A stretch of 64,000 nucleotides of DNA from Promethearchaeota archaeon. Its GTDB lineage: Archaea; Asgardarchaeota; Lokiarchaeia; Sigyniarchaeales; SOKP01. Positions 5,636 through 60,790 of this stretch are shown here, piece by piece. Position 1 is the stretch's first letter, and each line of letters begins with the position of its first letter. The translations under genes and the position numbers were made by a program. The stretch spans positions 98,664 to 162,663 of the forward strand of contig JAEOSU010000076.1 in NCBI GenBank assembly GCA_016840165.1, written 5' to 3'. The notes under the pieces were generated by a model. That model was not told the origin of the DNA and did no database searches. It worked only from the letters and a program-made list of their open reading frames with translations.

Positions 5636-6595
5636 TTATTTATTTGTTCCAATAATTCTTCTTAATTCTCCAACCGTAGTTTTTAATTCTGAATATACAT
5701 TATGGGGATGGATGGATTCATAACTTTCAATAGTGAATTTAATTTTAGACTGATCCTCCAAATTTGGAAAATCACTCAGGATGAATCTTTTTGCCATTTG
5801 TCTGACTACATCCTCAGAAAAAAGTGGATTTAGATGAGCTGTTCGAACTAGCCTTGCCTCTTCTGGTCTTTTTAGAACTGACTGCATTTTTCCCGACATT
5901 GAACCTTCTATGATATCAATTATATCTAAAACATCAATTTTATGATTGTTTAAATCTTTAATCTGCACAATAATAGTTCCTTTTGATCGCTGATTATGAG
6001 AACTAAAAGGTAAGATATTGAGGAGTTTCTTAATATCTTCTTCCCGCAGATTGATATCTCTTCTATTTTTAATAATTTCTTCAGCATACTCTTGGCTCAT
6101 TTCTTTTGCACAAGGGCAAACCGTCATACCAACGGCACTTGCCCCAATATAGTAGTTAAAATCAATCTCTCCTGATTCATCCTTACGGGCTTTTACAAAA
6201 GAACTTATATCATATGACTTTTGGATATTTCTTTGTTGTTCATCTTTAGTTTGAACGACTATTTTGCCTTCAAGTTTTACATAGACTTTTCTGGTATAAG
6301 GATGCTTTTTGAGAAGTTCTCGTGCAATTCTATCTCCTACCACTTCTACAGATGGTGTTGGTTTGAAAATTACCTCATTTATGATCTCTTCGATAGTTTC
6401 AGAGGTGCGAGACATATGAATCCCTCGTTGTTTGGCAGGAAGAGATATCAGTGCAGAGATCTTAGGATAAAAGGAGTAGCGCTTATTTTCTTGAATGATC
6501 TCGACTTTTTTTTCGACACCAACAATCCCAACTTTATCGATAGGAATATCGATTTTTGAGCCAGAATTCTGTAAATCTTTTTTAAAGTGGCTAAT
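5636..6595 (-). CDS. mptA: GTP cyclohydrolase MptA (FolE2 family); start extended to ATT at 6595
   Basis: GIHMSR, TVCPC, HNQR, ESIHPHN motifs. The frame is open 60 codons upstream of the track's ATG and includes KKDLQN...DKVGI. Confidence 0.88.
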   Translation of the reverse strand: MSHFKKDLQNSGSKIDIPIDKVGIVGVEKKVEIIQENKRYSFYPKISALISLPAKQRGIHMSRTSETIEEIINEVIFKPTPSVEVVGDRIARELLKKHPYTRKVYVKLEGKIVVQTKDEQQRNIQKSYDISSFVKARKDESGEIDFNYYIGASAVGMTVCPCAKEMSQEYAEEIIKNRRDINLREEDIKKLLNILPFSSHNQRSKGTIIVQIKDLNNHKIDVLDIIDIIEGSMSGKMQSVLKRPEEARLVRTAHLNPLFSEDVVRQMAKRFILSDFPNLEDQSKIKFTIESYESIHPHNVYSELKTTVGELRRIIGTNK

Positions 6596-6733
6596 TAAGT
6601 ATCACTAACTTAAAATTATTTATCTATCTAATAAAAGTAGATATCTAATATAAAAAATATTAATGACCAAGTTTGTTCTACTAAAATTTATAATTTAATT
6701 TATATCATTACTATGCTTATCTAATTTAAAAAA

Positions 6734-17351: not shown

Positions 17352-17530
17352 GAGAAATCAGATTTCATTAAAATTGAATATATAATTCTTTTATACTTAT
17401 TAGTTTATAATTATTGCTAAAGATATTATACTGACTTTTAGTTCATAGTGATTAAATATTAATAAACTAAAAAATTCATTTCCAAATAATTTAAAATTGA
17501 ATTAAATCAAATAATATTAAAAAAAGAAAG

Positions 17531-18070
17531 GTGTTCAAAATTACTGTGGTAGATGTTTATGTATGTAAAATTTGTGGAGAAGCATATATTGGAGAGAAGA
17601 TGCCCACGCATTGTCCTTTTTGTGGGGCTCATAAAAAGTATTTAGTGAAAGCCAGAGATTATGATGACACGGGTGCTTGGGAAGTAGATTTAAATGAAAA
17701 AGATAGAATAAACGCAGAGAAAGCTTTAGAAGTTGAAATCTCTAACACTATATTCTACAAATGCGCAAGTCAAAAAACTCCAAGTTTAGAAGGTCAAAAA
17801 TTATTTAAAATATTATCTAAAGTAGAAAATGAACATGCTTCTGTCTGGAAGAAAATTTTAAAATTAGAGAAAATTGAACTTCCAAAATATGATGCGTGTG
17901 CTTCTGAGTACATCCCAAATCTAGAGGAATCTCATTCTCGAGAAGAGAGAGCGATTAATTTTTACAAACAAGCAGCAGTAGAATCTGCGAATCCTCGAGT
18001 GAGAGAAATTTTTCAAGCTTTTGTAGAGGTAGAAACCGATCATCTCCAATTATCTGAAAAAAGACTTTAA
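17531..18070 (+). CDS. Rubrerythrin-like protein (N-terminal rubredoxin + ferritin-like domain)
   Basis: CKICG...CPFCG followed by two E...ExxH di-iron motifs. Confidence 0.85.
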   Translation: MFKITVVDVYVCKICGEAYIGEKMPTHCPFCGAHKKYLVKARDYDDTGAWEVDLNEKDRINAEKALEVEISNTIFYKCASQKTPSLEGQKLFKILSKVENEHASVWKKILKLEKIELPKYDACASEYIPNLEESHSREERAINFYKQAAVESANPRVREIFQAFVEVETDHLQLSEKRL

Positions 18071-32649: not shown

Positions 32650-34662
32650 ATGGAAGAGGATATTTCTTCATTACCATTTAGGAACTCTTCACTTGGGCTA
32701 GAAGAACGCGTGGATGATTTGCTAAAAAGATTAACATTAAAAGAGAAGTTTAAACTTAGTTCTGGTAGATTAATGTGGTTTACTAAGAAAATTAAAAGAT
32801 TGGGGATTGATTCATTTGCGATGTTTGATGGGCCTCATGGAGTTCGTCCGGATTATAAAGGTGAACGACCATGCACTTATTTTCCTTCTGCAATTTGTCG
32901 TTCTGCTACTTGGAATAAATCACTTTCAAAAAAATTTGGAGTTGCAATTGCCGAGGAAGTTCGAGAGCTGGGAGCGCATATGATACTTGCTCCAGGAATC
33001 AACATTCAAAGAACACCGATGTGTGGAAGAACATTTGAATATCAGACAGAGGATCCATATTTAAATAAAATATTAGCTGTATCAGTAGTAAAAGGTATTC
33101 AAAGCCAGAGAATTGCTGCCTGTGTAAAGCATTTCGTTTGCAATAATCAAGAAACAAATCGATTTACTTCTAGTTCAGAAGTGAATGAGCGAGCACTTCA
33201 AGAGATTTATTTTCCTGCATTTAAAGCTGCAGTAGAAAAAGCCGATGCATGGTCTTTTATGAGTTGTTATAATAAAGTGAATGGAGTGTATGGATCTGAA
33301 CACTTCAATTTGATTCGTGAAAGATTGATGAATGAATGGGGATTTCGAGGGTTTGTAGTTTCAGATTGGAATGCTACGGCTTATACAACAACAGAGGGAT
33401 GTGTAAATGCAGGATTATCACTTGAAATGCCAATAAGAAAAGCATATCAAGTAAAAAAAATGCAGAAAGCATTTGAAGAAGGAAAATTTAGTCTTGATTA
33501 TTTAAATGATAACATTAGAAGACTCTTGAGGGTCATGTTCTTAGTAGGATGTTTTGATAATCAGGATTCAATACCAAAAGGGAGTAGAAATACTCCTGAA
33601 CATCAAGCCTTAGCTCGTAAAATTGCGCAAGAGGGAATTGTCCTTCTAAAAAATGAAAAACAACTTCTTCCGTTAAACATTGAGAAAATCAAAAAAATAG
33701 CCGTTTTAGGCCCTAATGCGGAACTAAAAACATCATTAGGAGGGGGAAGTTCTACTAACTTTCCAACATATGAAGTAACTGCTCTTCAGGGAATTATAGA
33801 AAGATGTAGAGACAAGATTGAGATTATAGATTCACTTCCCGATGCAGATGTTTCAATATTATTTATCGGATTAAATCATGAAAAGAATATGGATGCTGAA
33901 GATACTGATAAGACTTCTTTCAAATTAGCATCAAGTCAAATACAGTTAGTTAAAAATACGATAAGGCAAAATAAGAACACAATTGTAGTGTTAATAAATG
34001 GGAGCCCAATTTCGATGGAGGAGTGGATCGATGAGATCCCAGTTTTGCTTGAAGCTTGGTATGCTGGAATGGAAGGTGGGCGGGCTATAGCTGATATTTT
34101 GTTTGGTGATGTGAATCCATCTGGAAAACTTCCGATTACTTTTCCTAAGCGACTTTCAGATTCACCTGCCCATAAGTCAGATAAAACATTTCCAGGAGCT
34201 GATAAAGTTTTCTATGATGAAGGAATATTCGTTGGTTATCGTCATTTTGAGTATAATGATATTAAACCACTTTTTCCATTTGGTTATGGTTTATCATATA
34301 CCACCTTCAAATATAGTAATATAAAAATGGAAAATAATCGAGTCTCGGGGAATGAAACTATAAGAGTTTCTGTTGAGTTGGAAAATACTGGAAATAATGA
34401 AGGAGCAGAAGTTGTTCAGTTATATCTTCACGACATGGAATCAAGTTTACCAAGGCCATTTAAGGAATTAAAGGGATTTAAGAAGATTTTTCTTAAACCT
34501 AAACAAAAAGAAACTATAAATTTCGAATTGTATCGTGAAGATTTAGCTTTTTTTGATGAAGAGGAGAATGATTGGGTAGTTGAAAATGGAACTTTTAAGA
34601 TTCTAATTGGGAGCTCATCGGAAGATATTCGTTTAGAAACTGAGTTTAATTATTCTAATTAA
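32650..34662 (+). CDS. GH3 beta-glucosidase
   Basis: DGPHGVR, LAPGINIQR, GRTFEY.TEDP, KHF, VSDW, NPSGKLP, PFGYGLSYT, Fn3-like tail. Confidence 0.93.
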   Translation: MEEDISSLPFRNSSLGLEERVDDLLKRLTLKEKFKLSSGRLMWFTKKIKRLGIDSFAMFDGPHGVRPDYKGERPCTYFPSAICRSATWNKSLSKKFGVAIAEEVRELGAHMILAPGINIQRTPMCGRTFEYQTEDPYLNKILAVSVVKGIQSQRIAACVKHFVCNNQETNRFTSSSEVNERALQEIYFPAFKAAVEKADAWSFMSCYNKVNGVYGSEHFNLIRERLMNEWGFRGFVVSDWNATAYTTTEGCVNAGLSLEMPIRKAYQVKKMQKAFEEGKFSLDYLNDNIRRLLRVMFLVGCFDNQDSIPKGSRNTPEHQALARKIAQEGIVLLKNEKQLLPLNIEKIKKIAVLGPNAELKTSLGGGSSTNFPTYEVTALQGIIERCRDKIEIIDSLPDADVSILFIGLNHEKNMDAEDTDKTSFKLASSQIQLVKNTIRQNKNTIVVLINGSPISMEEWIDEIPVLLEAWYAGMEGGRAIADILFGDVNPSGKLPITFPKRLSDSPAHKSDKTFPGADKVFYDEGIFVGYRHFEYNDIKPLFPFGYGLSYTTFKYSNIKMENNRVSGNETIRVSVELENTGNNEGAEVVQLYLHDMESSLPRPFKELKGFKKIFLKPKQKETINFELYREDLAFFDEEENDWVVENGTFKILIGSSSEDIRLETEFNYSN

Positions 34663-34757
34663 ATTTGAATTATTAGATTACTTCCAATTTACACCAAATA
34701 TTTTTAATTTTGATAAGATTTAGATAACTATCTTTAGATTTAAGCCGGTGAATTAGG

Positions 34758-36014
34758 ATTTTAAGAGTAGGAATTATAGGTTGTGGAGATATAGCCAATT
34801 TAAATGTTCAAGGCTATTTATACTCAAAAGATACAGAGTTAATTGCCATTTGCGATACAGATCTCGCGAGAGCTGGTGAGAAATTGGAGCGATGGGGTTT
34901 AAGATCCACAAAAGTTTACACTGATTATAAAGAAATGATAGACTATGAAGAACTTGATATCGTGGAAATACTTACACCGCATCACCTTCATTATCCTATG
35001 GCAGAATATTGTGCAAATGCTGGAGTACATGGAATTTCAGTTCAAAAACCATTAGCACATACAATTACAGATTGTGAGAAAATAATTCATGTATGTAAAA
35101 AGAATGAAGTTAAGCTAAAGTTGTATGAGAACTTTAGATTTTATCCCCCGTTTTTAAAAGCAAAAGAATTATTAGATAAGGGTATAATAGGAGAACCGAT
35201 TAATTTTCGAATTAATACTATTTCCGTCGGAGGCCCAGCAATGAAAGTTGATCTCAAATCTTTAGGGTGGCGTCGTAAGTTTGAAACATGTGGTGGGGGT
35301 CCACTAGTCTATGATGATGGAATTCACAAATTTTCAATGGCGCTATGGTTAATGAATCAAGAGAGAGTTGAAGAGCTTTATGCGCGGGTTGACTATTTTT
35401 CTGTTGTCAGAGATATGCCTAGCTATATTATTTGGAAATATCCAAACACAGATCCAAATAATCCTCCCAAATACGGTTCGATGGAATTTACTATCGCACC
35501 AAATCTTTATTATCCCAGTAATTATTATGGTTGTGATGAGTTTATTGAAATTTCAGGAACAAAAGGCATAATGTGGCTTAATCAATGTACTGCAGGTGGA
35601 AACTTTCTCTCAAAAACACCCCAATATCCTCCAATTGTTGTCTATGTAAATGGAGATATTAAAAAATTTGGAGAGGATTTGCCAAGAGATTGGAGATATT
35701 CATTTATTAATTCTACTTCACATTTTATAAGAGTAATCAAAGATGGCGGAGAACCTATTTATACAGGAGAAGAAGGGAGAGCCTTATGTATATTTGCTAA
35801 ATTACCATATATCTCCAATCAAAAGAATAGGATCGCATATTGGGAAGAGATAACGTCTGAGAATGAGCTTGATAAGTCATGTGTTGTTGAGGAGCCTCAA
35901 TATATTGATGTGGGAGGATTTACACGCTACGGTCGAAATGTCAGAAGAGATCTAAGAAAAGGAATAAATCAAGGGTTGGTTCATACCGATTTTAAATATC
36001 AATATGAACAATGA
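34758..36014 (+). CDS. Gfo/Idh/MocA oxidoreductase; start extended to ATT at 34758
   Basis: The upstream frame gives ILRVGIIGCGDIA (Rossmann motif), missing from the track ORF; QKP, ENFRF, GGG...D.GIH. Confidence 0.88.
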   Translation: MLRVGIIGCGDIANLNVQGYLYSKDTELIAICDTDLARAGEKLERWGLRSTKVYTDYKEMIDYEELDIVEILTPHHLHYPMAEYCANAGVHGISVQKPLAHTITDCEKIIHVCKKNEVKLKLYENFRFYPPFLKAKELLDKGIIGEPINFRINTISVGGPAMKVDLKSLGWRRKFETCGGGPLVYDDGIHKFSMALWLMNQERVEELYARVDYFSVVRDMPSYIIWKYPNTDPNNPPKYGSMEFTIAPNLYYPSNYYGCDEFIEISGTKGIMWLNQCTAGGNFLSKTPQYPPIVVYVNGDIKKFGEDLPRDWRYSFINSTSHFIRVIKDGGEPIYTGEEGRALCIFAKLPYISNQKNRIAYWEEITSENELDKSCVVEEPQYIDVGGFTRYGRNVRRDLRKGINQGLVHTDFKYQYEQ

Positions 36015-37121
36015 TTAAGGAAACTCATCAAGGAGAACCTCTTTCTTTTGTTCTACTGACTTGATGGCCGCAAGATTAAATTTCAGTACTTTTTTCGCTT
36101 CATAACCCGACAATACTGGTTTTTTTTCATTTTTTGCTACTTCTATTAGATGCTTAGTCGCATTAATGAAACTCTGTTTCCAATCATTATTAAAATCGTT
36201 ATAGGTTTCAACCTTTCCATCCCTTATTATTATGATTGGGGCAAAAACATCTGATTTTGTCATAGCATTTCCGATAGCAGTTCCTTGATTAATGCGCATG
36301 ATACCTCTAGAGGCAATAATTTCAATGAATTCGTCTGTTGAGTAATAAGGAGAGGGAATTTCCATCTCAGGCAAGTAGCAGAATTCCATTTGCCCATACT
36401 GGGGAACAACATGCTCTTTACTTTGCTTATATTTAAAAAGTACATACGCGGGAGCATCCATGCCATTATATGAACCCGTCCATGCAAAAATTTTGTCGAT
36501 CTCTTCATTTACTAACCATCTTGCTAAAGTGAATGCATGCCAACCATTATCAAATAAGATAGGAGACCCTTTAACTCCTCCTCCAACAAGTTTAGGATCT
36601 AATCTCCATTTTTCAGCGCTTTCTGGAATTTCCCAGCCACCGGAAGTTCCCAAAGCAACTTTAATCCGTACGGAAGTAATATCCCCAATATAATCTTGAT
36701 CGATTAATTCTTTTGCTTTTTGAATATGAGGGGCAAATATGAAATTTTCATATATTGATAATATTGCTCCTGAGTCATTACACGCTTTAATCATGTCATC
36801 TGCTTCCTTAAGCGTCAGGGCCATTGGTTTTTGAACCGAAATAACCCTCACTCCTTTACTAGCAGCGTGAATGCATGCTTCAGCATGAAGATTATGGGGT
36901 AAGAGAATCTCTAAAATGTCTAATTCTTCATTTTTAATCATTTCTCGATAATCAGAATAGACATGCATTTCTTCACTAAATTTAAATTTATCAATTTTGT
37001 CTCTCGCTTTTTGAACCGTTCTATTACATAAAGCTACAATTTTAGTTTCTTCATTTTCTAAATATCCTAAGACATTAAGGTCAAAAATAACTCCCGTTCC
37101 AATGAATCCTACACGCAACAT
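36015..37121 (-). CDS. Gfo/Idh/MocA oxidoreductase (convergent paralog)
   Basis: MLRVGFIGTG, SVQKPMA, YENF, D.GWH. Confidence 0.9.
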   Translation of the reverse strand: MLRVGFIGTGVIFDLNVLGYLENEETKIVALCNRTVQKARDKIDKFKFSEEMHVYSDYREMIKNEELDILEILLPHNLHAEACIHAASKGVRVISVQKPMALTLKEADDMIKACNDSGAILSIYENFIFAPHIQKAKELIDQDYIGDITSVRIKVALGTSGGWEIPESAEKWRLDPKLVGGGVKGSPILFDNGWHAFTLARWLVNEEIDKIFAWTGSYNGMDAPAYVLFKYKQSKEHVVPQYGQMEFCYLPEMEIPSPYYSTDEFIEIIASRGIMRINQGTAIGNAMTKSDVFAPIIIIRDGKVETYNDFNNDWKQSFINATKHLIEVAKNEKKPVLSGYEAKKVLKFNLAAIKSVEQKKEVLLDEFP

Positions 37122-56114: not shown

Positions 56115-56205
56115 GAAAAATAAGTAATACAAATTACAGGTATTTCTGACCGTTTTACCAATAAATTATCAAAATTAAAAAATAAAAAAATGAGGTGTAA
56201 AAAAA

Positions 56206-57030
56206 ATTACAGAAATTTATGCAATAAAAACAAATGAACTTACCAAATCATTTGGTAATGTTATGGCTGTTAAAAATTTGAATTTAAGTATTCCATATGG
56301 CCAAACTTACGGTCTCTTAGGACCTAATGGAGCTGGAAAAACCACGACTGTAAGAATGCTGAATTCAATTATTTCCAAAACATCTGGAAGTGCGATTGTG
56401 GGAGGATTCGATACTTTTCTCCAAAGCCAAGAGGTTAAGAGAATTTGTGGTTTCTTACCAGAATCCCCCGGATTATATTCGAAACTAACTGCCCGTGAAT
56501 TCTTAGAATTCATTGGAGCGTTATACAGCATACCGAAAGAGGTATTAAGAGTTCGTATTGATGAATTGTTAGAACTTTTTGATTTAGAAGGCAGAGAAAA
56601 TGATTTATTAGAAGGTTTTTCAAGGGGTATGAAGCAAAAAGTCTGTTTATGCGCAGCATTAATCCAAGATCCAGAAATAATCTTTTTAGATGAGCCTACT
56701 TCAAACCTGGATCCTGCAATTGCTCGGATGGTAAAAGATCTCATTTCAATCCTTGTAAAAAAAGCTGATAAAACCATTTTCATATGTACACATCTATTAG
56801 ATGTAGCTGAGGAGCTATGTGATACTATTGGTATCATCGTTAACGGTGAGTTAAAAATTGAAGGTTCACCAAAAAATATCATCGAATCTGTTGGTGCTAC
56901 TAATCTCGAAGATGCTTACTTAAAAGTTACAGGGGCAACTCATATTGAAGATCTGCTTGGCTGGCGAAAAGATAGTACTTCAGATGTGAATAGGAAAAAT
57001 GAAAAAGTAAAAAAAAAACTAAGGACATAA
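56206..57030 (+). CDS. ABC transporter ATP-binding protein; start extended to ATT at 56206
   Basis: GPNGAGKT, FSRGMKQ, FLDEP, TH. The upstream frame adds YAIKTNELTKSFG, the usual first strand of the ABC domain. Confidence 0.92.
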   Translation: MTEIYAIKTNELTKSFGNVMAVKNLNLSIPYGQTYGLLGPNGAGKTTTVRMLNSIISKTSGSAIVGGFDTFLQSQEVKRICGFLPESPGLYSKLTAREFLEFIGALYSIPKEVLRVRIDELLELFDLEGRENDLLEGFSRGMKQKVCLCAALIQDPEIIFLDEPTSNLDPAIARMVKDLISILVKKADKTIFICTHLLDVAEELCDTIGIIVNGELKIEGSPKNIIESVGATNLEDAYLKVTGATHIEDLLGWRKDSTSDVNRKNEKVKKKLRT

Positions 57031-58740: not shown

Positions 58741-58865
58741 ATAATGGAGATCTAAATCTTTTTCTTTTTTTATTTATCAATTACTAAATAACAAAAAATA
58801 AATGATCTTATGAAAAAGCAATTACTATAGTATTTGGATATATTTAGACTATAGGTGAGATTAAT

Positions 58866-59510
58866 ATAAATCAAATAGATTCACTGGATAAATTAGAAAA
58901 AAAAGCATGGAGCATTAATTTCGAAGATGGGACTTTTGAAATTTATTTAGGGATAATAATTATAAGCTTCGCACCACAGCTCTCCTTATTTGACATACTA
59001 CCTATTCCATTTAACTTTTTATTAGGTCCAATAATTATTGGATTTGCTTTAGCCTTATTTCTTCTCAGTAAGAAGTATCTCATTAAACCTCGTATTGGAA
59101 TTGTTAAGTATGGGCGAAAAAGGAAAATGAAAAAACAAAAAACGGTATTCATTTTAACAATCAATATGCTAATGTTATTTATCATCTTCCTTTTAACGTC
59201 ATCAGGTTTTTTGGATGATTTGAATATTCCTTGGTTTTTAGAAGTATTATTTATCCAGTTAATTTTTGTTACACTTCCATTGTGCCTTGTAGCATATTAT
59301 TTTCAATATAGTCGGCTATATATTATCGCTGTTTTGATGGGATCGTCAATCTTTATCGCAGAGCTCAGTTCAACCTTTATTATCCCTCCATTTAACTACT
59401 TATTCATATTTCTAATTATAGGTGGTTTAATTATACTAATGGGGGTAATATCATTGTTCAAATTTCTCAAAAAGTATCCTAAACAAAAGGAGGAGGCAGA
59501 TAAATTATGA
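58866..59510 (+). CDS. Membrane protein, tandem paralog 1; start extended to ATA at 58866 (or ATT at 58860)
   Basis: The upstream frame encodes LEKKAW...FEDG..EIYLG and KKYLIKPRIG, matching the next two genes; in-frame TAG at 58845. Confidence 0.75.
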   Translation: MNQIDSLDKLEKKAWSINFEDGTFEIYLGIIIISFAPQLSLFDILPIPFNFLLGPIIIGFALALFLLSKKYLIKPRIGIVKYGRKRKMKKQKTVFILTINMLMLFIIFLLTSSGFLDDLNIPWFLEVLFIQLIFVTLPLCLVAYYFQYSRLYIIAVLMGSSIFIAELSSTFIIPPFNYLFIFLIIGGLIILMGVISLFKFLKKYPKQKEEADKL

Positions 59511-60148
59511 ATGATACGATAAATTTAAAACAATTGGAAAAAAAGATTTGGAGAGCTACCTTTCAAGATGGCTTATGGGACATATATTTTGGTTTAATTA
59601 TCATGGGAATGGGGCTCGCCCCTTTAGGAAGATTTTTAGGTCTACCAGAAACAATTGGAGTTTTAATATTAGTCTTTAGTTGGGATATAGTAGCAGGATT
59701 AATCTTTATTTTGGGAAAAATATATATTACGAGACCGAGGATTGGTTTTGTTAAATTTGGACAAATTCGTAAAAGAAGAAATAAGCTTTTAGCTGTCTTT
59801 TTAGGCATAAATGTTGGATTTACTTTTATAATATTAACTTTTACTTTACTGGGAATGTTTCAAATAAGTTTGCCCGGGTACATGGTAATGTTGGTTATTG
59901 GGTTATTATTCATTACTACACCCTTTAGCTTTATAGCCTATTTTATCCAATTAAAGCGTGTTTATCTTTATGCATTATTAGGTGGATTTGGACTATTCTT
60001 TAGTGAATTATTAACTCCAATTTTAGATTCTCCTTTTAATGACCTACTTGTTTTTGTTTCTTTTGGTGGTATGATTTTAGTTTTTGGAATAATCATTCTA
60101 ATTCGTTTTTTAAGCAAATATCAATTAGGTAAAGAGGGGGTGCCCTAA
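59507..60148 (+). CDS. Membrane protein, tandem paralog 2
   Basis: LEKKIWRATFQDGLWDIYFG, ITRPRIG.VKFG, RFL.KY. Confidence 0.8.
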   Translation: MNDTINLKQLEKKIWRATFQDGLWDIYFGLIIMGMGLAPLGRFLGLPETIGVLILVFSWDIVAGLIFILGKIYITRPRIGFVKFGQIRKRRNKLLAVFLGINVGFTFIILTFTLLGMFQISLPGYMVMLVIGLLFITTPFSFIAYFIQLKRVYLYALLGGFGLFFSELLTPILDSPFNDLLVFVSFGGMILVFGIIILIRFLSKYQLGKEGVP

Positions 60149-60151
60149 AAG

Positions 60152-60790
60152 ATTTCAGAACAAGTTGATCTTGAAAGTTTAGAGAAAAAGACTTGGCGTT
60201 CTACATTTCAAGATGGTTTATGGGATATATATTTAGGTTTAATATTATTTGGTTTAGGAGTAGGATGGTTAGGTGATTATATTGGAATGCTGTATCCATT
60301 TGGAACAGTATTTTTAATATTTACTATTGACATAATAGCAGTTCTTATCATAACACTGGGAAAAAAATATATCACAAAACCACGAATAGGGCAGGTAGAA
60401 TTTGGAGAATCAAGAAAAAAAAGAAAAAAATGGTTGATGGTATTTTTGGCTTTGAATGTAGTTTTTTCTGTAATTGTTTTAATCTTGACAATTACTGGCA
60501 ATCTTAGCCAATTTTTTGTACCGGGACTATTTACTCCTTTAGCTTTAGGTTTAATAGGTATAACAGTACCTTTTAGCGTTGTGGCATTTTATTTACAACT
60601 TCCGCGATTATACGTCTATGCACTTTTAGGAGGGTGTGGATTCTTTTTTACTGAGCTATTATATCCTCTTGTAGGAGAACCATGGGACATAGTAATAAGT
60701 TATGGTAGTATCGGAGGATTTATATTAGTTATAGGAATAATACTTTTGGTTAGATTTCTTCAGAAGTATCCTTTAGAAAAAGAAAGGTGA
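60152..60790 (+). CDS. Membrane protein, tandem paralog 3; start extended to ATT at 60152
   Basis: The upstream frame encodes LEKKTWRSTFQDGLWDIYLG, nearly identical to paralog 2. Confidence 0.8.
   Translation: MSEQVDLESLEKKTWRSTFQDGLWDIYLGLILFGLGVGWLGDYIGMLYPFGTVFLIFTIDIIAVLIITLGKKYITKPRIGQVEFGESRKKRKKWLMVFLALNVVFSVIVLILTITGNLSQFFVPGLFTPLALGLIGITVPFSVVAFYLQLPRLYVYALLGGCGFFFTELLYPLVGEPWDIVISYGSIGGFILVIGIILLVRFLQKYPLEKER

Follow-up and report, generated by a model that had tools for sequence, protein, structure and literature searches.

Near-cognate AUU, AUA and AUC codons as probable translation starts in an uncultured Promethearchaeota archaeon

The window analysed here, a 64,000-nucleotide stretch of DNA carrying about 62 genes (G000:C58:98664-162663), belongs to an uncultured Promethearchaeota (Asgard) archaeon, represented by a metagenome-assembled genome (MAG) of 3.6 Mb in 105 contigs with 31.6% G+C, hereafter G000. 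It encodes a GFO/IDH/MocA oxidoreductase whose reading frame opens at an ATT and not at one of the canonical starts ATG, GTG and TTG (Table 1). A sequence-only reading of the window had placed the start at this ATT, behind a GGTGA Shine-Dalgarno (SD) box and an in-frame TGA, with no canonical start ahead of the Rossmann motif, and all of these features were found when the bases were checked one by one. Inspection of the sequence gives 6 nucleotides (nt) between GGTGA and ATT 34758; counted from GGTG the distance is 7 nt, the modal spacing for ATG starts across G000. The frame reads I-LRVGIIGCGD from the ATT and stays open until TGA 36012-36014. No ATG, GTG or TTG occurs in frame between the upstream TGA and TTG 34884, which is the first canonical start, 42 codons in and past the GxGxxG Rossmann motif, so that a protein begun there would lack the motif.

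Pfam GFO_IDH_MocA (PF01408) aligns residues 2-121 of the ATT-started protein with profile positions 1-117, and matches to PF22725 and PF02894 complete the combination of a Rossmann NAD-binding N-terminal domain and an alpha/beta C-terminal domain that marks GFO/IDH/MocA proteins. A convergent paralog on the minus strand (37121..36018) starts MLRVGFIGTG, and the residue-for-residue match earlier claimed for the two proteins holds, since the alignment begins at residue 1 of both. Relatives of G000 are labelled G005-G027, with g1 for its own genus and g2-g9 for other genera. All 11 same-genus orthologs of the oxidoreductase (68-82% identity, N-terminal stretch compared) have ATG at the codon aligned with ATT 34758; most of them have no SD box, and G000 has GGTGA.

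The sequence-only reading had listed further starts of this kind in the window. Position 6595 is a real ATT start, lying on the minus strand, for a FolE2/MptA-type GTP cyclohydrolase. The first canonical start of this gene, ATG 6415, is 60 codons in, and Pfam GCHY-1 covers residues 6-302 (E 4.9e-61). The aligned codon is ATT or ATC in 11 of 11 genus orthologs, behind GGTGA, GGTGT or AGTGA and usually with a stop codon 1-6 codons upstream; in genera g4-g7 an ATG stands at the aligned codon or adjacent to it. The starts at 56206 (ATT), 58866 (ATA), 60152 (ATT) and 60797 (ATT) were each confirmed base by base. Pfam ABC_tran matches residues 22-166 of the ABC-transporter ATPase begun at ATT 56206, and of its five same-genus orthologs four carry ATG at the codon aligned with this ATT and one carries it one codon upstream; the leader is GAGGTG in G000 against TAGATG in the closest ortholog. 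The membrane protein begun at ATA 58866 can be aligned at its N-terminus with the middle paralog, which starts at ATG 59507, and with orthologs in G010 and G012. The codon aligned with ATT 60152 is ATG in the middle paralog and in three G010/G012 copies, and the fourth copy, from G010, has ATG four codons upstream. Residues 30-108 of the winged-helix regulator begun at ATT 60797 are covered by Pfam HTH_34, and its orthologs have ATA behind GGTGA at the aligned codon (G012) or ATG two codons upstream (G010).

Table 1. Coding sequences (CDS) and SD boxes at the non-canonical starts; positions are those of the window unless a contig is given.
Feature	Coordinates	Strand	Start and evidence
SD box GGTGA	34747..34751	+	its TGA (34749-34751) is the in-frame stop closing the frame upstream
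GFO/IDH/MocA oxidoreductase CDS, 418 codons	34758..36014	+	ATT start; Pfam, orthologs, paralog
FolE2/MptA-type GTP cyclohydrolase, 319 codons	5636..6606	-	ATT 6595..6593 behind AGTGA 6606..6602
ABC-transporter ATPase, 274 codons	56192..57030	+	ATT 56206; SD GAGGTG 56192-56197; first ATG 56263, 19 codons in
Membrane protein, family without assignment, first of three tandem paralogs	58853..59510	+	ATA 58866; SD AGGTGA; first ATG 87 codons in
Third tandem paralog	60136..60790	+	ATT 60152; SD GGGGGTG; first ATG 45 codons in
HTH_34 winged-helix regulator, 110 codons	60785..61129	+	ATT 60797; SD AGGTGAT
Rubrerythrin CDS, start ambiguous	17529..18070	+	ATT 17540 (6 nt after GGTG) or GTG 17546 (12 nt after)
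aIF1/SUI1 gene	G000:C49:34399-34728 (locus L035:1462-1791)	-	ATT at 34728, fourth codon after closing TGA

A possible ATT start proposed for rubrerythrin fared less clearly: ATT 17540 is well spaced behind GGTG, and the spacing favours it over GTG 17546, but this GTG only two codons later leaves the start ambiguous. No rubrerythrin ortholog was found in the 20 relatives searched. The window holds 6 solid non-canonical starts in its roughly 62 genes, which bears out the earlier estimate of about 6 in 65 for this stretch only, because the density lies above the genome average (roughly 1.5-4%) and the window is a local high.

The genes between 56192 and 61129 form an apparent operon of the ABC ATPase, a 563-aa protein, the three tandem membrane-protein paralogs (no Pfam match) and the HTH_34 regulator, and an ATT or ATA opens four of the six. 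Stop codons fall within, or immediately ahead of, the SD box of the following gene; TGA 60788-60790, for example, lies inside the AGGTGAT box upstream of the regulator and is the stop of the third tandem paralog. This arrangement suggests translational coupling, as judged from the layout of the genes.

Whether ATT and ATA behave as start codons throughout G000 was examined by their spacing from SD sites. The 4-mers GGTG, GAGG, GTGA and AGGT are enriched upstream of G000 open reading frames (ORFs), and the anti-SD sequence was taken from these and from the archaeal consensus because a search of the assembly found no small-subunit (SSU) rRNA. Sites matching GGAGGTGATC over 5 bases or more were all located, and the triplet at each aligned spacing was scored if it opened at least 100 codons and had an in-frame stop upstream with no canonical start in between; non-canonical triplets were additionally required to have no canonical start within the next four codons. 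At spacings of 7-8 nt the counts were ATG 111, TTG 35, ATT 30, ATA 13, GTG 12 and CTG 7, against AAT 5, TTA 4, TAT 4, AAA 7 and TTT 10 for AT-rich control triplets. ATT, ATA and CTG share the 7-8 nt peak with ATG, TTG and GTG (Fisher test against pooled controls: ATT p = 7e-6, ATA 0.006, CTG 2e-4), whereas the control triplets have no peak, and a reversed decoy motif produced none. The genome-wide re-examination with ATT and ATA allowed, which the sequence-only reading had recommended, thus places both at the spacing of start codons. Behind strong SDs, ATT occurs about as often as TTG and outnumbers GTG, ATA matches GTG, and about one-fifth of starts are non-canonical after background subtraction. 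ATC and ACG showed no peak in the same test (ACG 1 versus 4), though ATC is used by uS4, discussed below, and by FolE2 orthologs. Raw counts of GGTGA, spacer and triplet taken outside the context of ORFs were dominated by background and were of no use for surveying other genomes.

The 56 candidates listed include genes in which an essential motif lies ahead of the first canonical start, among them small GTPases (P-loop), an ABC ATPase, and flavodoxin-like and HisA-like genes. About 45 non-canonical starts are the SD-anchored lower bound for G000, and a crude hexamer estimate of coding potential, which separates short coding and non-coding stretches poorly, arrives at 60-100 among about 2,740 likely genes, or some 2-4%; the affected share of genes is therefore put at roughly 1.5-4%. 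CTG occurs 7 times at 7-8 nt and once at other spacings, with examples in HisA-like and flavodoxin-like genes. Ras/Arf-like small GTPases with ATT behind an SD were seen at G000:C2:19719 (-), C78:13728 (-), C58:85151 (+) and C2:65466 (-). In the first three, the earliest canonical start comes 56-84 codons after the P-loop GxxxxGKT; the GTPase at C2:65466 has its first ATG at 7 codons, before the P-loop.

The enrichment of AUH codons (AUU, AUA or AUC) recurs in four sister species: the same test on 1.2 Mb from G008, G012, G017 and G018 gave ATG 42, TTG 8, ATT 15 and ATA 2, with controls at 0-2. Four hundred kilobases of a third lineage, G024, gave ATG 8, TTG 3, ATT 3 and ATA 2 (controls 0-2), an enrichment that is suggestive only. 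The 800 kb sampled from G026, a complete genome from another family of the same order, showed no ATT enrichment (ATG 35, TTG 3, ATT 2, ATA 1; controls 1-2). A few AUU starts might be expected in every prokaryote, with no specificity to this lineage; such starts are known in bacteria (infC, pcnB), the leader-length distributions of G000 and G026 are alike, and the comparison genome was sampled in part. It is nevertheless very unlikely that the starts in G000 represent this ordinary background, given the frequency of ATT behind strong SDs relative to TTG and GTG, the one-fifth share of non-canonical codons among strong-SD starts, the outcome in G026, and the presence of conserved AUH starts in the core genes for uS4 and the initiation factor aIF1.

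Ribosomal protein uS4 (G000:C105:11822-11958; loci L211-L223) begins ATC-GGA-GAT-CCA behind AAGGTGA. The ATC is found in G000 and in 8 of 12 sister species (9 of 13 genomes), and the other four sister species, like genera g2, g4 and g5, have ATG-GGA-GAT-CCA. In the reciprocal comparison, 5 ATT and 1 ATA candidates from sister species align with ATG in G000, and others are common to the genomes as ATT, ATC or ATA, indicating that ATG and AUH replace one another as starts among members of the genus. Examination of the orthologous codons, also called for earlier, accordingly gave two outcomes: ATG in relatives (34758, 56206, 58866 and 60152) or a conserved ATT or ATC (FolE2 and uS4). Judged by these alignments, the non-canonical state is sometimes recent, as in the species-specific ATT 34758, and sometimes old and maintained, as in FolE2 and uS4.

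These comparisons also bear on the idea that the start codons have simply been lost, leaving genes in decay or genes that yield only N-terminally shortened proteins begun at the next ATG, GTG or TTG. In-frame canonical codons do lie downstream, for example TTG 34884 and ATG 56263, and the ATT of the oxidoreductase is derived and confined to this species. Truncation at these codons, however, would delete the Rossmann GxGxxG, strand 1 of the ABC ATPase, the P-loops of GTPases, most of the N-terminus of uS4 and 60 residues of FolE2. The stretches upstream of the canonical codons are open and conserved across species at the protein level, a strong and well-spaced SD stands at each site, and the pattern is shared with an essential ribosomal protein, all of which makes start-codon loss a highly improbable explanation.

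Annotation in public assemblies has followed the canonical codons. The oxidoreductase is called as a 359-aa protein from ATG 34935 in independent Logan assemblies of SRR14699980 and SRR14699982, beside an intact paralog, and the ABC ATPase is called as 255 aa from ATG 56263 on three Logan contigs. At the oxidoreductase the callers leave a 272-nt "intergenic" gap (34662-34935) that encodes the first 59 codons of the gene. No record of a 259-aa FolE2 product from ATG 6415 was found in the contig collection. The systematic N-terminal mis-annotation predicted from the window is thus realized in the 359-aa and 255-aa products, which show that callers restricted to ATG, GTG and TTG truncate or mis-start such proteins. 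Because a caller would take an ATG at 34758 or 56206 if one were present, the truncated calls further suggest that the non-canonical codon stands in the independent assemblies. There is almost no chance, in our estimation, that the true bases are ATG, miscalled through sequencing or assembly error. The MAG is in 105 contigs, and ATT 34758 occurs in this species only among 12 genomes, as a miscall might, but ATT or ATC stands at the same FolE2/MptA codon in 11 independently assembled species and ATC at the uS4 start in 9, the excess is limited to ATT, ATA and CTG at SD spacing and does not extend to random bases, and identical truncated calls from independent assemblies are not expected with ATG in place.

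The initiator tRNA that would read these codons appears ordinary. ARAGORN, run with and without introns, reported only 11-13 tRNAs with no tRNA-Met and missed the initiator along with most other tRNAs of G000; an Rfam scan of G000 reported 20 tRNAs, and many are intron-bearing. The initiator tRNA was found at about G000:C49:11030-11175 (+) with a loosened anticodon-stem pattern, the strict pattern having failed because of an intron. Its two introns follow the anticodon loop and interrupt the T loop, respectively; the mature tRNA has the canonical features, namely a CAU anticodon, A1-U72 and, in the anticodon stem, three G-C pairs (G29-31/C39-41). The starts could also be explained by a further initiator-like tRNA whose anticodon differs, or by RNA editing that turns AUU into AUG, and with so incomplete a tRNA census other initiator-like tRNAs could have been missed. 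Even so, the sole initiator found is fully canonical, there is no sign of editing in the sequence, and third bases U, A and C, together with CUG, are used and interchanged between species, a variety more readily accounted for by mismatch tolerance than by a dedicated tRNA or base-specific editing; special decoding of either kind seems extremely improbable. An alternative genetic code with a reassigned stop was ruled out: TGA, TAG and TAA all close frames upstream, and orthologs start with ATG at the same codon.

The start positions inferred in this way are those of orthologs and paralogs, no canonical start precedes the essential motif, and the SD stands at canonical spacing more often than by chance. 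We consider it very probable that the sites are real start positions, used through SD-anchored initiation at near-cognate codons. Strong pairing with a GGTGA-type SD core would position the 30S subunit so that an AUH codon 6-8 nt further on (AUU most often, then AUA, then AUC, with CUG in a few cases) occupies the P site, where the ordinary CAU initiator tRNA would read it with a third-position mismatch and the protein would begin with Met. Starts would turn over between ATG and ATT, ATA or ATC among sister species, some non-canonical ones being kept for long periods, and the tolerance of the lineage would follow from a start-codon stringency that is set low. The relaxed start-codon selection that the sequence-only reading ascribed to this lineage finds support, at the level of sequence, in the SD-spacing peaks of G000 and the four sister species, in the orthologous ATG codons and in the conserved ATT and ATC.

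A candidate for the element that sets the stringency is aIF1 itself. A search of G000 found SUI1/aIF1 and no bacterial IF3. In all 14 genomes of the genus with a match, ATG, GTG and TTG are absent from aIF1 ahead of its CPxC...CxC zinc knuckle, and the gene opens with a conserved "ATT AAA GA" whose ATT is in each case the fourth codon from the closing TGA (Table 1); this fidelity-factor gene therefore begins at a conserved non-canonical codon in 14 of 14. G005 and G007 each carry a second aIF1 gene, in which the same ATT lies 8 nt behind a perfect GAGGTGA (9 nt when counted from GGTG). The start in other genera is TTG (g2, g9), ATA (g5) or ATG (g4, g8). Residue 5 of the ATT-started product aligns with residue 3 of Methanocaldococcus jannaschii aIF1. 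The product retains an intact zinc knuckle, basic loop 1 (RRKWGR) and the GGT/LQGDH motifs, all of them similar between ATT-rich and ATT-poor lineages. Residues R31, Y32 and K34, shown to be important in Pyrococcus abyssi aIF1 (PMC6237735), have basic or aromatic counterparts in the G000 protein. A defective aIF1 protein was ruled out as the cause of permissive starts by the intact knuckle, loop 1 and GGT/LQGDH. Inspection of the fidelity residues, another check proposed earlier, thus revealed no obvious defect in the protein and drew attention to its gene, which lacks a canonical start. Both copies of aIF1A, and also aIF2-beta, begin with ATG.

In Saccharolobus solfataricus, aIF1 causes the 30S complex to reject an mRNA starting with AUU, according to work summarized in a review (PMC4705826). 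Translation of an AUU-rejecting factor from its own AUU would follow the logic of infC, a parallel we infer from the sequence only. Synthesis of aIF1 from its own conserved AUU would be self-limiting and would hold discrimination against AUH at a permissive level. We offer tentatively, as a possibility we rate somewhat below even, that such autoregulation sets the stringency of start-codon selection, and that the permissive set-point allowed AUH codons to become regular starts that alternate with AUG in the course of evolution, even in ribosomal-protein genes.

Several observations weigh against these interpretations. Among 12 genomes, ATT at 34758 occurs in this species only, and for the oxidoreductase taken alone a recent, partly deleterious start-codon mutation is conceivable. 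The aIF1 protein has no obvious fidelity defect, and the link between the aIF1 start and tolerance is drawn from three lineages: g1 (ATT, enriched), G024 (ATA, suggestive, 400 kb) and G026 (TTG, not enriched). The share of affected genes is approximate, and leader length, measured from the stop to the first canonical start, did not separate G000 from G026; shadow ORFs and other noise dominate this measure.

No known prokaryotes are closer relatives of eukaryotes than the Asgard archaea, whose biology is read almost entirely from predicted proteins. If a few percent of these proteins start at codons that callers of the Prodigal, GeneMark and PGAP type refuse, they are deposited truncated or mis-started, as illustrated by the 359-aa call that deprives the 418-aa oxidoreductase of its NAD site, by GTPases without a P-loop and by uS4. 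Such errors would distort domain inventories, structure predictions and expression constructs, and the Asgard tubulin AtubA, described below, is an example of the practical cost. Were the pattern to hold, databases would give systematically wrong starts for Asgard proteomes, among them many small GTPases that rank as eukaryotic signature proteins. An archaeon that accepts AUH codons with eukaryote-type factors, and makes aIF1 from an AUU, would also be a natural system for learning how stringency is set, and self-limiting control of an eIF1-family factor, if confirmed, would be older than eukaryotes.

In Escherichia coli, infC and pcnB start at AUU, and IF3 is autoregulated through the AUU codon of infC. 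The starts in G000 resemble this system in having a near-cognate AUU behind an SD, a normal initiator tRNA, and a discriminating factor whose own gene, here that of aIF1, starts with AUU. They differ in the factor, since aIF1 is a homolog of SUI1/eIF1 with a fold unrelated to that of IF3, and in extent, since such starts go beyond a couple of regulatory genes to roughly 1.5-4% of genes, include that of a ribosomal protein and extend to AUA, AUC and CUG. The feedback known for infC (its AUU start in bacteria is reviewed in PMC4705826) is putative for aIF1.

Eukaryotic eIF1 is autoregulated through the poor context of its AUG, as cited in two papers (Ivanov et al. 2010, in PMC6237735 and PMC4705826). 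The proposed regulation of aIF1 would be similar in involving a homologous factor of the SUI1 fold whose weak start lowers its synthesis as stringency rises; the weakness, in this putative case, would lie in the codon itself (AUU) and not in its context, and in an SD-dependent, non-scanning setting. A "rare ATT start codon" was proposed for AtubA of the Kariarchaeaceae (Sci Adv 2026, PMC13394414), where a deposited Asgard protein that was too short was likewise mended by an ATT at a plausible distance from a ribosome binding site. AtubA is one gene from another Asgard class and was treated as a rarity, whereas the starts reported here are backed by genome-wide statistics, several species and core genes. 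A full-text literature search, itself of incomplete coverage, uncovered no systematic treatment, for archaea, of AUH starts or an AUU start for aIF1.

The mitochondrial and Mollicutes codes (NCBI tables 2, 4 and 5) list ATT, ATA and ATC as regular starts. G000 is like these systems in that AUH codons would be routine initiators in an AT-rich genome, and unlike them in being an archaeon with aIF1, aIF1A and aIF2 and with SD positioning, in which no change of stop or sense codons is evident. Initiation at AUU and autoregulation of a fidelity factor are each known from other organisms; new here are a eukaryote-type archaeal system, in which the autoregulation is putative, and the use of such starts on the scale of a genome.

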